DNA of 64,000 nt from a candidate division CSSED10-310 bacterium (GTDB lineage: Bacteria; CSSED10-310). Numbering within the stretch: the first letter of the stretch is position 1; the number at the start of each line of letters is the position of its first letter. The position numbers and the translations under genes are program-made. This document shows, piece after piece, positions 46,918-51,372 of this stretch. Location of the stretch: contig JAFGEQ010000002.1 of assembly GCA_016931515.1 (NCBI GenBank), positions 26,278 through 90,277 on the forward strand. Reading direction: 5' to 3'. The notes below the pieces were generated by a model. It was given only the letters and a program-made list of their open reading frames with translations. It did not search any database and was not told the DNA's origin.

Positions 46918-48984
46918 TTATTCCAATAAAGCAATATGTCCCAAGGCAACAAATTGAGAGCCGATGGGCATTTCCTGCGCAGCTAGTACCTTTATACCCT
47001 GGATCTGTTGAGCAAGAAATCTCCATAATACATAGCGTATATTCTGTTCAACTGTCATTATAATGGAGGGTCGATTTCCATTGTTGCTAAAATGTGTATT
47101 AAACGTTGATATCACCTGTTCCATTAATTGCGGAGCAAGAGCTAGTAAGCGCTCCTGACCGGTTACATGGATTGATGATTGAAACATGGATTCAATAGAA
47201 GGATCAAGTAGAAATACTTCCAAGTGCCCTCTTTTCGCGTATTGATGATAGATTTGTCGACCCAGACGAACCCGAATTTTATCCGTGAGAGTAATGTTAT
47301 CCGACTCACTGTCAGCGTACTCAGACAAGGCTTCCAGTATCCTTTTCAGATCGCGAATACTGACATTCTCCTGTACCAGTCGTCTTAGAATATCACAGAG
47401 TCGCTGGTATGAGATAACTCGCGGAACTGTTTCGTTCACAGTATCCGGATAGAGTTTTTCCAGTTCATCACACAACCATTTAACTTCCTGGAGTCCCAGA
47501 AATTCAGCTGCATGATAAGAAATAATTTTCTTCATTTGGAGTATTATCAAATCGCTGCCTGTGACAACTTCAAATCCTGCTTTTGTCAGTCGTTCCGATT
47601 GGTTCTCAGGGATCAATAAGCCACATTCCTTGAATTCGTCACAGAGTATTTCACCCATAGCGGACATCAGATTGCTGTCATCGTTAACATTTTTTACGAA
47701 GGCTTTATCAGAGGGTATCAGTCCACGGTAGACGAGTGTATCCATGATGTAAATTTCAAATGAATCCTTTTGTAAATGACCGGGAGCACCTTGAATCCTG
47801 ATACCAGGAATCTGAACACCTGTCTCCCAGTAAATTTCCTGACGCAATTTAGGTTCCAGGAACTTGAAGAATTGAGAATCGGGGTTATCTGATGACAATA
47901 ATTCGAGAACGTTGCGACCAGCCAACAAGGTGATCGGTGAAGGAGTAGCCAGTATGATTTGGTTGGCCCTAGATGATTGGACTCTTGTAATGAGCGAAAC
48001 AGGTCCGGATTTGTCGTGTTCATTTTTGCCAAGCAAGAATAAACCGATCATTCCAATCGAGCCCGAAAGAAACCAGAAAGGGAGTAAGGGTAACGCAGGA
48101 ACAAAGCCGAGGATTAACAAGAGAACAGATACAATTATAAGGGCCTTTGGATAAGCAAGTATCTGAGTGCTCAGGTCTTTTCCGAGGTGATCGCCTGTTA
48201 ACTCCGGATCCACCCTTGTAACCATCAAGCCTGATGCCACTGACACAATCAAGGCGGGAAGTTGGGACAACAACCCATCTCCGATGGTTAATATGCCATA
48301 AAGCTCAATGGCTTCGGATAAAGTCATCTGCTTTGTCCATATGCCAATTATTAATCCACCGACAATATTGACAGCAGTAATCAGAATTCCGGCGATAGCA
48401 TCTCCCTTCACAAATTTCATCGCGCCATCCATCGCACCAAACAACTGTGATTCGCGTGATAACTCTCTCCTTCGAGTTCGAGCCTCCTGAAGATCAAAAG
48501 CCCCAGCTCTCAGATCCGCATCGATTGCCATCTGTTTGCCTGGCATGGCATCTAATGTGAAACGTGCAGAAACCTCTGCAACACGTTCAGAACCTTTCGA
48601 GATGACTATAAAGTTAACAAGTGTCAATATCAGGAATACTATCGCTCCAACAACCATATTTCCCTGCACGACGAAATTACCGAAGGCTTCGACTACACGT
48701 CCGGCATCCCCCTTGAGTAAGATCAGGCGAGTTGTGGAGACATTCAAAGCCAATCGGAACAGCGTTGCAATTAAAAGGAGACTCGGGAAAGAGGCTAGCC
48801 GAATTGCACTGGTAATATAGAGAACAACGAGCAGTATGGTTATTCCGATAGCGATGTTAAATGTAAGCAGCACATCCAGAAGGCCGGTTGGAAGGGGGAT
48901 GATCATCATCCCCACAACCAACACAACAAATGCTGCCAGGATAACGTCGCTATATTTCGAGACGAATCCCATCGGTTGAATCAA
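46918..48984 (-). CDS. sctV: FHIPEP-family type III secretion export-gate protein (SctV/FlhA)
   Basis: 688 aa; N-terminal TM domain with conserved FHIPEP blocks (RLASFPSLLLIATLFRLALNVSTTRLIL, VVEAFGNFVVQGN, FTLDAMPGKQMAIDADL) and a large cytoplasmic C-terminal domain. Confidence 0.85.
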   Translation of the reverse strand: MIQPMGFVSKYSDVILAAFVVLVVGMMIIPLPTGLLDVLLTFNIAIGITILLVVLYITSAIRLASFPSLLLIATLFRLALNVSTTRLILLKGDAGRVVEAFGNFVVQGNMVVGAIVFLILTLVNFIVISKGSERVAEVSARFTLDAMPGKQMAIDADLRAGAFDLQEARTRRRELSRESQLFGAMDGAMKFVKGDAIAGILITAVNIVGGLIIGIWTKQMTLSEAIELYGILTIGDGLLSQLPALIVSVASGLMVTRVDPELTGDHLGKDLSTQILAYPKALIIVSVLLLILGFVPALPLLPFWFLSGSIGMIGLFLLGKNEHDKSGPVSLITRVQSSRANQIILATPSPITLLAGRNVLELLSSDNPDSQFFKFLEPKLRQEIYWETGVQIPGIRIQGAPGHLQKDSFEIYIMDTLVYRGLIPSDKAFVKNVNDDSNLMSAMGEILCDEFKECGLLIPENQSERLTKAGFEVVTGSDLIILQMKKIISYHAAEFLGLQEVKWLCDELEKLYPDTVNETVPRVISYQRLCDILRRLVQENVSIRDLKRILEALSEYADSESDNITLTDKIRVRLGRQIYHQYAKRGHLEVFLLDPSIESMFQSSIHVTGQERLLALAPQLMEQVISTFNTHFSNNGNRPSIIMTVEQNIRYVLWRFLAQQIQGIKVLAAQEMPIGSQFVALGHIALLE

Positions 48985-48989
48985 CCTAT

Positions 48990-49496
48990 CTAGGCTGGAG
49001 TCTGCATGGATTCAATGAGTTCACGAGTAATCATTGATAAAACTCGTGCCCGTGAGCTGAGTGAGGATTCATCATCCGGATCCAGATCTATCGCCGCCTT
49101 CAAATCTTCTGCAGCCTTATCAAAGCAATTAAGCTTTAAATAAACTTCCGCGCGATTGGTCAGGGCGGATATATCTTCCGGATCAGAGTCAACTGCCCTA
49201 TTGAAAAACTCGACAGCCTTCTCCAGTTCACCGTCTCTTGCTGCAATTGTTCCCAACGCCGTCTGAACGAAACTGTCATCATGGCCGAGAGCATTCAATC
49301 CCTGGAAAATCAGCCGGGCATCCTCGTACTTACCTTGATTGAATAGTTCATAACCAACAACTGATAAATTACTGAGATCCTGTTCTGAAAGTTTAAATAC
49401 GTCCTTCAGTTTCACTCCGCTCATCAGCACATGAGTCAACTCATCTGAAGTCAATGGATCTCCCCGATTGATTTTTTCCTGGACTATTGCGTTCAT
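48990..49496 (-). CDS. TPR protein resembling class II type III secretion chaperones (LcrH/SycD/PcrH/SicA family)
   Basis: 168 aa, the same length as LcrH/SycD, with three TPRs. The segment YELFNQGKYEDARLIFQGLNALGHDDSFVQTALGTIA parallels, from memory, the LcrH/PcrH segment FNQYQSGKYEDAHKVFQALCVLDHYDSRFFLGLGACRQ, with the shared GKYEDA core. Confidence 0.6.
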   Translation of the reverse strand: MNAIVQEKINRGDPLTSDELTHVLMSGVKLKDVFKLSEQDLSNLSVVGYELFNQGKYEDARLIFQGLNALGHDDSFVQTALGTIAARDGELEKAVEFFNRAVDSDPEDISALTNRAEVYLKLNCFDKAAEDLKAAIDLDPDDESSLSSRARVLSMITRELIESMQTPA

Positions 49497-49523
49497 AATA
49501 AACTCCTTTCTGTTTCTTCCCGA

Positions 49524-50138: not shown

Positions 50139-50256
50139 TATAATTCTCCTTCTGATGAAAATTGTTAGTATTCATTAGTTGACTGCTTTTTGTAACGTTA
50201 CTTTACGTATTATATGTTTTTTGAATTTTTTGTCAAGCGATCAATCAAATTCGGCA

Positions 50257-51309
50257 TCATCTGCAACGCATTCGTTCCTGATATGAGAGGCTCTGGAGAT
50301 AAATTAATAGTTCCGCAACTGCACGGAAAAACTCAGAAGGTATCTCCTGATCAAGTGATAAATCGTATAATCGCCGGGCCAAGGGAGGATTTCTTAAGAC
50401 CGGCACATTATTCTCTGAAGCTATTGCACGAATCTTTTCTGCCGATTTAAGATATCCCTTTGCCACAACCCTGGGAGCCGTCTCCCAATGATCTTCGTAC
50501 TGGATGGCGACAGCATAATGAGTCGGATTAACAACAACCACCCTCGCTGCGGAAACACGCTCAAAAAGAAGCATTTCCGATATTTCCCGATGCATCTGCT
50601 TCCTGCGCTCTTTTATTGTCGGATCACCTTCGGCATCTTTATGCTCCCGGAGCACTTCCTGGCGTGTCATTTTCAATTCCCTCAACCACCAATACCGCTG
50701 CAATAAATAATCAACGAATCCGTAAAACGAGCCGAGAATCAACAGGATGAATCCCGCGTGAATAATGATCTCCTTGCAGAATCCGACCACAGATTCCAGA
50801 GATGACTGATCAACGAGAATTAGAGCAGGGAGATGGTTTTTTATTAAGAGACAAATCGTCGTTATAACCAAAGACAGCTTGCATATGTTTTTCAGGATAT
50901 CCTGTAACCTTCTGATTGTGAATGTTTTCTGAAAATACTGAATCGGCATTAACCGGGAAAGATCAACTTTCGTTGTCCGAAACAGGGGACCGACCTGCAG
51001 ATATCCGATAGTCCATCCGAATAGCAGGGCAGAAAAAATTATCGGAATACTCATACTAATAATAACGTGCGCGAACTTTCCGAGGACATGAACCCAATCC
51101 CAACTTCCATTCATTCGTTCGGATGACCAGAACCATTCGAGTTGGGCAACCCAGATAGCGATAAACTTAGATGCATTCACTAACAGAATTCCGAATCCCG
51201 CAATAAACACAGCCGCCGCTGAAGTATCTGTTGAATAAGCGACCTGCCCTCTTTTTCTGGCATCCCGTTTCTTTTTTTCAGTAGGTTTTTCAGTTCGACG
51301 CTCACTCAT
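50257..51309 (-). CDS. sctU: Type III secretion export-apparatus switch protein (SctU/FlhB family)
   Basis: Track ORF reaches 51336; the likely start is MSERRTEKPTEKKKRDARKRGQVAYS, the canonical FlhB/YscU N-terminus; four TM helices; the NPTH autocleavage site (VVVVNPTHYAVAIQY) is present. Confidence 0.85.
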   Translation of the reverse strand: MSERRTEKPTEKKKRDARKRGQVAYSTDTSAAAVFIAGFGILLVNASKFIAIWVAQLEWFWSSERMNGSWDWVHVLGKFAHVIISMSIPIIFSALLFGWTIGYLQVGPLFRTTKVDLSRLMPIQYFQKTFTIRRLQDILKNICKLSLVITTICLLIKNHLPALILVDQSSLESVVGFCKEIIIHAGFILLILGSFYGFVDYLLQRYWWLRELKMTRQEVLREHKDAEGDPTIKERRKQMHREISEMLLFERVSAARVVVVNPTHYAVAIQYEDHWETAPRVVAKGYLKSAEKIRAIASENNVPVLRNPPLARRLYDLSLDQEIPSEFFRAVAELLIYLQSLSYQERMRCR

Positions 51310-51372
51310 ACCATTCCATTGTTTGTAATGATTCATTACAAATATAGCTTTTTAATGGTATAGTGTCAAATT

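Follow-up and report, generated by a model that had tools for sequence, protein, structure and literature searches.

An export-gate module in the CSSED10-310 window

We analysed a 64-kb stretch of DNA (hereafter the window, which means the whole stretch of 64,000 nucleotides) from a candidate division CSSED10-310 bacterium, a member of a phylum that is known from metagenome-assembled genomes (MAGs) only. The subject of the analysis is a compact group of genes built around sctU and sctV, which code for two components of the export gate in type III secretion systems (T3SS). Between these two genes lie those of a 204-aa protein (X204) and of a 168-aa tetratricopeptide repeat (TPR) protein (TPR168). 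A sequence-only reading had described these four genes, and we found all of them on the minus strand, at exactly the coordinates that it gave (Table 1). The SctV of the window is identical to MBN1878541.1, a protein that is encoded on a 178-kb contig of a candidate division CSSED10-310 bacterium. We observed that the module exceeds this earlier description, and that two genes of the plus strand belong to it as well: one for a tail-anchored forkhead-associated (FHA) protein, FHA164, and one for a small protein with two transmembrane (TM) helices, TM92. The FHA gene had been listed as a neighbour that converges on the cluster; its presence and orientation stood, but its standing as a mere neighbour did not, as FHA164 matches the PF16697 family and is the positional orthologue of the convergent tail-anchored FHA gene of Myxococcus and Archangium.

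Table 1. Coordinates in the window of the module genes, their promoters and the kinase and phosphatase genes
Feature	Position	Strand	Remarks
1711-aa fusion protein: Ser/Thr kinase, AAA_16, TPR, sigma-54 activator, HTH_8	36726-41861	+	
PP2C phosphatase	41922-42776	+	after the 1711-aa kinase fusion
TM92, 92-aa two-TM protein	46148..46426	+	no family match; upstream of FHA164
FHA164, tail-anchored FHA protein	46408..46902	+	convergent with sctV; PF00498 62 bits, PF16697 Yop-YscD_cpl 48 bits (cutoff 33.2)
sctV, major export-gate protein	46918..48984	-	688 aa from TTG; PF00771 FHIPEP E=1e-207
TPR168, class II (LcrH/SycD/PcrH/IpgC-type) chaperone homologue	48990..49496	-	168 aa; TIGR02552 LcrH_SycD
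X204, lineage-specific 204-aa protein, putative chaperoned substrate	49524..50138	-	no family match
Putative operator, 15-mer GTAAAGTAACGTTAC with 10-bp palindrome GTAACGTTAC	50192..50206	-	right after the -10 box
Perfect sigma-70 consensus promoter (TTGACA-16-TATAAT, 12/12) before X204-TPR-sctV	50209..50236	-	sole 12/12 match in the window
sctU, export-apparatus switch protein	50257..51336	-	359 aa; PF01312 Bac_export_2 E=1e-95, full length
Sigma-70-type promoter (TTGACA-17-TATATT, 11/12) before sctU	51341..51369	-	in the 36-bp GT4-sctU gap

Nearly all non-overlapping open reading frames (ORFs) with a length of 110 aa or more were scanned with Pfam across the window (all but three short ones and the final ~1.5 kb), and the window was compared by tblastn with every ORF of 16 reference T3SS and flagellar loci. 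Outside the module, the Pfam scan returned housekeeping, envelope and regulatory genes only. The tblastn matches were confined to 46.9-51.3 kb, the others being generic TPR, kinase and housekeeping (glycine-cleavage) similarities. The window carries sctU and sctV only, out of nine core T3SS genes, and the module is embedded among housekeeping genes. We found no secretin, needle or translocon genes in the 64 kb by tblastn with the reference loci, and no flagellar genes by either method; the claim that no other T3SS or flagellar genes lie nearby holds across the entire window. The GT4 glycosyltransferase and mgtE genes that had been named as neighbours were borne out by Pfam. They were considered as parts of the system, being syntenic in most of the related lineages described below, but sctU is preceded by a conserved promoter of its own, and two unrelated genes lie between GT4 and sctU in one relative (L003); we treated both as neighbours outside the system.

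SctV and SctU are non-flagellar gate proteins

We observed that SctV has the full-length FHIPEP architecture (PF00771 positions 1-653 of 657; TIGR01399 positions 2-666 of 677), with several hydrophobic segments within residues 14-318. NCBI starts the gene at an ATG at 48972, four codons downstream of the TTG, which gives 684 aa. In SctU, PF01312 covers positions 2-334 of 335, the four hydrophobic regions are present, and the NPTH autocleavage motif is intact at residues 270-273. These full-length matches confirm the identities that the sequence-only reading had given to the two proteins.

As FlhA and FlhB of the flagellum are homologous to SctV and SctU and are often encoded side by side, we compared the scores of both proteins on the curated models of the two kinds. 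SctV scored 689.6 bits on TIGR01399 (hrcV), 2.7 bits short of the cutoff of 692.25, versus 616.6 bits on the FlhA model (cutoff 772.1), and so favours the SctV model by 73 bits; the SctV proteins of the relatives L005, M. xanthus and Eisenbacteria exceed the TIGR01399 cutoff. SctU scored 301 bits on TIGR01404 (cutoff 358) versus 293 bits on flhB (cutoff 349).

A SctV/FlhA alignment of 107 sequences (the CSSED clade, the top database matches and 80 loci from many phyla) was used for neighbour-joining trees with 200 and 300 bootstrap replicates. The outgroups came from a scan of genome contigs that is dominated by the universal FHIPEP motif DAMPGKQM (best match 47%, no CSSED genome). The window SctV fell within a 13-member clade with 100% bootstrap support, and this clade was nested, again with 100%, in a 49-member non-flagellar clade that includes the M. 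xanthus T3SS*, Archangium, Chlamydiales, Bilophila and Achromobacter, and leaves out every Firmicute, Actinobacterial and other FlhA in the tree. The labels of the clades were checked with ten representatives against the curated models: the proteins of the flagellar clade scored ~250 bits higher on FlhA, and those of the non-flagellar clade higher on SctV. SctU was also placed in the non-flagellar clade, with 86% support. The non-flagellar nature that had been proposed for the pair is thus upheld by the very phylogeny that the proposal had called for.

These results bear directly on the possibility that the two genes encode the FlhB/FlhA export gate of a flagellated lineage, merely in an unusual gene order. 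The MAG announcement called the phylum 'possibly motile' from matches to flagellar genes (PMC8248873), the two scores of SctU are nearly equal, and one partial SctV homologue is auto-named FlhA in the database. But SctV stands apart from all FlhA proteins in the tree, its score difference runs the other way from that of true FlhA, and neither the synteny with the T3SS* locus, nor the class II chaperone, nor the SctD-like FHA protein (all described below) is a flagellar feature. A flagellar gate is therefore very unlikely, and we would give this reading next to no weight.

The module is conserved in seven lineages

We compared the window with the contigs that carry P0002, P0005, P0008, P0010, P0012 and P0013, seven lineages in all, in which the identity to the window SctV goes from 62% down to 46%. 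The same string was found in each of them: sctU, X (196-253 aa), TPR (168-174 aa) and sctV, followed by the convergent FHA gene (149-316 aa) and a convergent gene of 92-94 aa, with mgtE and/or GT4 nearly always ahead of it. All six ORFs are intact in 7/7 lineages. Neither sctRST nor sctN, sctJ or sctC was ever found within 10 kb of the module in these lineages.

Constraint on the module was gauged against the flanking housekeeping genes; where proteins are 45-60% identical, synonymous sites are saturated. Between the window and the related loci L001 and L003, the identities are 61-62% for SctV, 71-73% for TPR168 (the most conserved protein of the module), 43-45% for SctU, 44-49% for X204 and 31-34% for the FHA protein. 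The flanking genes give 63% (PP2C), 59-63% (epimerase), 68% (GT4), 68% (KdsA) and 79-81% (TrxB). Hence, SctV and TPR168 are conserved on par with the housekeeping neighbours, and SctU, X204 and FHA164 evolve faster. The blocks of the SctV TM domain (residues 61-210) are 69-95% identical across the clade.

SctU is the fastest-evolving core gene of the module, its identity to the L005 protein being 27%, and the blocks of its TM domain are only 13-33% identical among the relatives. The autocleavage motif itself varies: NPTH is present in the window, L003 and L092, NPTR in L001 and L093, NPTD in L005, NPTQ in L094, and NPDH in the Myxococcota. The constraint on the fourth (and third) position appears to be relaxed in needle-less systems.

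A search of both strands of the 64-kb window gave three sigma-70 promoter matches of at least 11/12, and two of them lie in the GT4-sctU and sctU-X204 gaps. The third, at 19964 (minus strand), precedes the ORF 18829-19914 for a 361-aa protein with a MshEN domain; MshEN is the N-terminal domain of type II/IV-pilus ATPases. The promoter of the GT4-sctU gap is found at the equivalent position in L003 (12/12) and L001 (11/12), and that of X204 at the same position in L001, L003 and L092 (12/12) and in L089 (11/12). Among 95 loci, a perfect sigma-70 consensus was present in six; five of these are in the sctU-X204 gap and one belongs to an unrelated locus. The 15-mer GTAAAGTAACGTTAC that follows the -10 box of the X204 promoter is identical in L001 (8800-8814) and L003 (8780-8794), where the proteins are 44-73% identical to those of the window, and its palindrome GTAACGTTAC has one exact copy in the whole window. 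From its position and symmetry the element looks like a putative operator for a dimeric regulator.

In L003, the 538 bp between a Na+/H+ exchanger gene and sctU (7124-7661) contain three ~60-bp repeats, GAACGGTGATTCC.TTCATTGTCTGAACACGATTCCAAAGAT..CAAAGATGGGCA.GATT. This repeat may be a small mobile or REP-like (repetitive extragenic palindromic) element that came with the two-gene insertion between GT4 and sctU.

The above observations allowed us to weigh whether the locus is a decaying, non-functional relic of a once-complete T3SS locus. It keeps two of nine core genes, several of its scores are below the trusted cutoffs, NPTH is degenerate in relatives, and loci of the myxobacterial type were once annotated as relics in the literature. 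However, six ORFs have stayed intact throughout seven lineages whose divergence has brought SctV identity to 46-62%, conservation is on par with the housekeeping neighbours, the perfect promoter and the 15-mer are conserved, and non-flagellar T3SS are quickly deleted after loss of function (Abby and Rocha). We consider decay quite improbable. The module is clearly predicted to be functional and not a relic, because its ORFs are intact, SctV and TPR168 are conserved like housekeeping proteins, and the promoters and the 15-mer are kept.

Relation to the Myxococcus T3SS* and to chlamydial systems

The M. xanthus 'needleless' T3SS* (MXAN_2434-2464) lacks secretin, needle and translocon and has several LcrH homologues; it and the Kil Tad pilus are both required for lysis of prey. 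This type, the 'Myxo' family of Abby and Rocha 2012, is thought to be limited to the Cystobacterineae and to be the earliest branch of the non-flagellar T3SS.

We observed that the gene order of the module closely follows that of this locus. In M. xanthus the order is sctR-sctS-sctT-sctU, a fragment of the FlhB C-terminal domain, a 159-aa ORF, a TPR gene, further genes, a second TPR gene, sctV and a convergent double-FHA gene; the Archangium locus is a more compact form of the same layout. The shared backbone consists of sctU, small ORF(s), an LcrH-like TPR gene, sctV and a convergent tail-anchored FHA gene with canonical phosphothreonine-binding residues, and its order and orientation are found in the Archangium and P0012-lineage loci as well. 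The two genes between sctU and sctV had been described as inserted; this does not hold, since a small ORF and an LcrH-like TPR gene at this place are the ancestral layout, as in the Myxococcota. The closest named matches of SctV are Myxococcus SctV proteins (45-46% identity), and the CSSED SctV proteins have a mean distance of 1.01 to the Myxo-like group, compared with 1.21 to the classical and 1.32 to the flagellar proteins. Both the module and the Myxococcus locus lack secretin, needle and translocon genes, and both show vertical inheritance and strong conservation within the host clade. In our opinion the gene order is a stronger argument for this relationship than the tree.

The differences are also considerable. 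In Myxococcus, sctRST lies directly upstream, and sctN, sctL, sctQ, sctJ, sctD and sctI are in the same 30-gene cluster, whereas the window has sctU and sctV only. The Myxococcota have three TPR chaperones, a DUF1521 protein and a 92-94-aa FlhB-C paralogue, whereas the window has one chaperone and none of the others. There is one FHA domain in the window protein and two in that of Myxococcus; the P0012 lineage keeps two. No Myxococcota homologue of X204 or TM92 was detectable by jackhmmer or hhalign. NPTH is intact in the window, unlike the NPDH of the Myxococcota, and the host belongs to a phylum other than that of the Cystobacterineae, to which the literature limits the type. As regards the FlhB-C paralogue, we noted a 90-94-aa SctU/FlhB C-terminal-domain protein directly after sctU in the Myxococcota T3SS* loci L087 (2949-3233), L007 (7253-7531) and L039 (6589-6861); such a separate paralogue was not found in the CSSED module.

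The pairing of sctU and sctV had been likened to the dispersed T3SS of Chlamydiae (cdsU-cdsV), and there are real likenesses: core genes are split over several loci, sctU and sctV stand together without sctRST (as in the Chlamydiae loci L009 and L017), and there is an FHA-bearing SctD-like protein, CdsD. But sctU directly abuts sctV in Chlamydiae with nothing between, and secretin, needle and a full-length SctD are present there. In our trees, CSSED grouped with the classical injectisomes, Chlamydiales included, in 2% of the bootstrap replicates, and the nearest relatives belong to the Myxo-like grade; the analogy is not supported.

The same evidence is relevant to the possibility that a complete injectisome, scattered as in Chlamydia and used against eukaryotic hosts, has the module as one of its loci, with needle, secretin, SctJ/SctD rings, translocon and effectors encoded at others. 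Scattered non-flagellar T3SS exist in the literature, the chlamydial loci provide a precedent, and a non-flagellar SctU/SctV pair comes here with a class II chaperone, which serves translocators in known systems. Apart from the bootstrap value, however, secretin, needle and translocon are all missing from the nearest Myxo-like systems, the SctD-like protein is devoid of the periplasmic ring domain with which to reach a secretin, X204 has no TM segment and matches no needle, tip or translocator family, and the habitat is anoxic sulfidic sediment and sludge. A dispersed injectisome of this kind seems rather unlikely to us. Of the expression 'non-flagellar injectisome' in the sequence-only reading, the first word is well supported; the needle machine that the second implies is not, given that the closest system is needle-less and that the SctD-like protein lacks the periplasmic domain.

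Dispersal as such is not unique to CSSED10-310. Lone sctV genes of the non-flagellar type were noted in L088 (Candidatus Eisenbacteria), L025 (Polyangiaceae) and L031 (a groundwater MAG); up to 10 kb from each of them there is neither sctRSTU nor a TPR or FHA gene. Together with the sctU-sctV pairs of Chlamydiae, these loci indicate that gates can be found apart from the core genes elsewhere, and orphan or dispersed gates seem to be common in environmental Myxo-like lineages.

TPR168 and X204 as a candidate chaperone-client pair

The top NCBIfam family of TPR168 is TIGR02552 (E=1.8e-21, 76.3 bits, under the cutoff of 104.8), with the next family more than 30 bits lower, and a phmmer match to PcrH (2xcb) is colinear. 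Its AlphaFold2 model has a mean predicted local distance difference test score (pLDDT) of 89.2 and ten helices, which form three TPRs and a capping helix. Among 350,000 PDB chains, the best natural Foldseek matches were AcrH (3wxx), PcrH, IpgC and SycD, with TM-scores of 0.79-0.84, a root-mean-square deviation of about 2.1 A and 24-28% identity. The fold of an LcrH-like class II chaperone, as had been suggested from the sequence, is borne out by this comparison. The closest Myxococcota counterparts of TPR168 are the TPR genes directly upstream of sctV in Archangium and Myxococcus.

X204 has no Pfam or NCBIfam match (for Pfam, even at E<=10), no sequence homologue in the PDB, and no match to needle, tip or translocator families. 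The family is very narrow: it has 16 proteins among 5.8e9, or 9 representatives among 1.84e9 by exhaustive HMMER, and a metagenome scan with the X204 profile found three short contigs only. Three islands are conserved, namely an amphipathic N-terminus, the segment P60-A61-x-Q63-F64-x-L66-x-x-P69, of which Q63-F64-x-L66-x-x-P69 is invariant, and a nearly invariant C-terminal helix (residues 164-203); the linker is rich in Ser, Gly and Thr. The most distant members keep F-x-[LMI]-x-x-P. The AlphaFold2 model has three long helices and disordered linkers, and is compatible with a protein that would fold only with a partner or on assembly. Wherever the context could be read, a TPR168-type gene follows the X204-type gene. 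Even in the case of a 120-aa relative that shares the C-terminal helix only (P0164, on L095), a TPR168-like gene comes next.

The hexapeptide to which class II chaperones bind, P/VxLxxP, is found at residues 49-70 of the translocators that are their clients. We propose X204 as a chaperoned, exported client of the SctV gate, because it has F-x-L-x-x-P at residues 64-69, comparable to this hexapeptide, and because of the persistent pairing of the X and TPR genes; the proposal is drawn from motif and gene order. The pair resembles the known chaperone-client pairs (LcrH/SycD-YopB/D, PcrH-PopB/D, IpgC-IpaB/C and AcrH-AopB) in size, TPR fold and the position of the chaperone gene beside that of the presumed client, and X204 resembles IpaB, PopD and YopD in having hydrophobic-x-L-x-x-P ~60 residues from the N-terminus. 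Unlike known class II clients, it lacks a TM segment and any similarity to translocators, and its anchor residue is Phe and not Pro or Val. The gene order also differs: TPR168 comes after its presumed client, whereas in Yersinia lcrH precedes yopB/yopD.

In Yersinia, the position directly upstream of sctV is occupied by another TPR chaperone gene, yscY, together with yscX. TPR168 is in the yscY position, but it scores only 39.5 bits on the SctY model (cutoff 70), far under its LcrH_SycD score, and we rejected the idea that X204 is SctX and the TPR protein SctY. X204 as a SctF needle or SctI rod was likewise rejected: it has no Pfam match at E<=10, no needle match in the PDB, and hhalign against the Archangium positional analogue gave a probability of 1.8%.

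Small proteins with an X204-like layout (hydrophobic N-terminus, Gly/Ala/Thr-rich middle and C-terminal helix) were noted just upstream of the sctV-proximal TPR gene in L007 (8649-9164, Archangium) and in L039 (within 7398-8579). The Archangium analogue ends in ...DMSKSIIQNTRG, which is similar to the C-termini of needle proteins, and this protein has a sub-threshold, in-register Pfam match to T3SS_needle_F (E=0.16); X204 has none. That X204 and the 171-aa Archangium protein are extremely divergent axial, needle-like subunits is an idea of low probability. If it were true, the 'needleless' systems would not be needleless.

FHA164, TM92 and a possible link to kinase signalling

FHA164 consists of a cytoplasmic FHA domain followed by a C-terminal TM helix (~141-161), and it ends no more than three residues beyond the helix. 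Its matches to PF00498 and PF16697 are both above the cutoffs of these families. The large, ring-building periplasmic domain of SctD is absent from FHA164 and from all its relatives, Myxococcota included. By jackhmmer, FHA164 joins the double-FHA proteins that are encoded convergently in M. xanthus and Archangium (E ~1e-47), all of which end in a TM helix. The phosphothreonine-binding pattern GR...S[RK]xH...[ST]xNG is found in eight of nine FHA proteins checked, FHA164 among them, the exception being that of L093; the FHA domain of classical SctD has no phosphothreonine-binding residues. FHA164 is SctD-like in its cytoplasmic topology and should not be filed as SctD, because it lacks the periplasmic ring domain and keeps the phosphothreonine-binding Arg, Ser, His and Asn.

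TM92 is encoded upstream of the FHA gene in 7/7 lineages, with identities of 60-65% in L001/L003 and 50% in L005. Its stop codon overlaps the start of FHA164 by 19 nt, and because of this overlap the two genes are probably translationally coupled. TM92 was considered as SctS/FliQ, to which it is alike in size and in having two TM helices. This was rejected: it has no Bac_export_3 match at E<=10, and hydropathy gives an interhelix loop of ~35 residues.

The kinase fusion and the PP2C phosphatase lie 4-10 kb from the module and are co-directional with TM92-FHA164. They are syntenic in four of six relatives, including L001, L003 and L093; the L092 contig ends before this region. A phospho-dependent link from the kinase and phosphatase to the gate via FHA164 is plausible from this arrangement and still unproven. 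In Chlamydiae, CdsD is phosphorylated by PknD.

A probable secretin-less gate module and its presumed partners

Taken together, we think that the locus is probably an early-branching, secretin-less gate module of the 'Myxo'/T3SS* type in CSSED10-310, a contracted version of the 3' half of the Myxococcus/Archangium locus. By homology, SctV would be the export gate and SctU the gate-associated switch. X204 would be made together with its chaperone and SctV from the very strong, probably repressor-controlled promoter in the sctU-X204 gap. TPR168 would hold X204 in the cytoplasm, with the F-x-L-x-x-P segment in the groove of its TPRs, and deliver it to the cytoplasmic ring of SctV for export. FHA164 and TM92 would be located in the inner membrane beside the gate, where FHA164 might take the place of SctD on the cytoplasmic face; because the phosphothreonine-binding residues are kept, FHA164 probably connects the gate with signalling by Ser/Thr kinases.

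SctRST, the ATPase, the C-ring and SctJ are presumed to be encoded elsewhere in the genome, because SctU and SctV form no channel without SctRST. The helical core of SctRST/FliPQR is the channel itself, and we know of no function of SctV or SctU without this core. Genes assigned to the 'flagellum' by KEGG in CSSED MAGs are compatible with such a location, and they may partly reflect T3SS homologues.

Several points weigh against this interpretation. The existence of the remaining apparatus is assumed: sctRST, sctN, sctQ, sctL and sctJ were found neither in the 64-kb window nor within +-10 kb of the module in the seven lineages. SctV, SctU and the TPR protein are all under the NCBIfam trusted cutoffs (689.6/692.25, 301/358 and 76/104.8, respectively). 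In the distance tree, CSSED and the Myxo-like proteins grouped together with a bootstrap support of only 33%, and the Myxo-like set itself with 11%. The fast evolution of SctU and the degeneration of NPTH in relatives indicate that its classical role as a switch may be relaxed. X204 lacks a TM segment and so is no translocator, in contrast to the clients that are known for class II chaperones, the first anchor residue of its motif is F and not P/V, and its model is of low confidence (pLDDT 54.7). Finally, the link between the FHA protein and the kinase is based on a synteny with the kinase and PP2C genes that is absent in the P0012 lineage.

The first of these points could also mean that SctU and SctV need no dedicated non-flagellar SctRST and act either as a minimal exporter with FHA164 and TM92 or as alternative gate subunits on a flagellar FliPQR core. 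The lack of sctRST in all seven contexts would agree with this, as would the totally orphan sctV genes in Eisenbacteria, Polyangiaceae and the groundwater MAG, the flagellar genes reported for these MAGs, and the fact that no part of the module is less conserved than the membrane domain of SctU, the one that is in contact with SctRST in known systems. On the other hand, the SctRST/FliPQR core is the channel in known apparatuses, the absence of sctRST covers local contexts only, and conservation of the TM domain of SctV is very strong, as is expected where the usual partners are kept. We regard such an arrangement as unlikely. Its strictest form, in which CSSED10-310 has no non-flagellar sctRST or ATPase at all and SctU-SctV, X204 and the FHA protein are a self-sufficient exporter or dock on FliPQR, is distinctly unlikely. 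If it were true, it would represent a living flagellar/non-flagellar hybrid, the intermediate that has been postulated for the exaptation to injectisomes.

The sole genome description of CSSED10-310 reports 'the majority of flagellum ... genes' by KEGG and considers the phylum 'possibly motile', with no mention of a T3SS (PMC8248873); the Zodletone papers do not specify the flagellar or T3SS genes that were detected. The sequence-only reading had called the module a new occurrence if the lineage is not known to have a T3SS; none has been reported for CSSED10-310. The genes of CSSED MAGs that were assigned to flagellar KEGG orthologues could be homologues of sctRST, sctN and sctQ, or true flagellar genes. 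As the FlhA/FlhB-type genes of the CSSED clade are non-flagellar, the inference of possible motility (PMC8248873) needs re-checking.

Other features of the window

A transglutaminase-core plus TPR protein is encoded at 53965-55101 (plus strand). It is kept in five of six relatives' contexts (absent from L003), beside mgtE or, in L001, GT4, and by tblastn its TPR region is similar to the TPR protein encoded beside the FHA gene in M. xanthus (E=8e-14) and in Archangium (E=8e-12). The similarity may be generic to TPRs or may point to a further shared component. The window also has a bacterial RNase P class A RNA at 11959-12342 (plus strand; Rfam RF00010, 338 bits), and no tRNA genes were found in its 64 kb.

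Implications

The finding reveals no new kind of machine; it is a locally reduced Myxo/T3SS*-like module in a new phylum. The secretin-less Myxo-type T3SS is regarded as a surviving intermediate between flagellum and injectisome, which serves bacterial predation together with a Tad pilus and has been described only in the Cystobacterineae. A related, vertically inherited module in an unrelated, uncultured and anaerobic phylum would widen the host range of this early-branching grade, and would add an independent lineage, the second, with which the origin of the non-flagellar T3SS can be rooted. It would also mean that such systems can be split up, which matters for detection tools that need co-localised core genes, and that T3SS homologues may be part of the basis on which CSSED10-310 was called 'possibly motile'. 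X204 and TPR168 would be a compact candidate substrate-chaperone pair for a type of system that has no known substrates.

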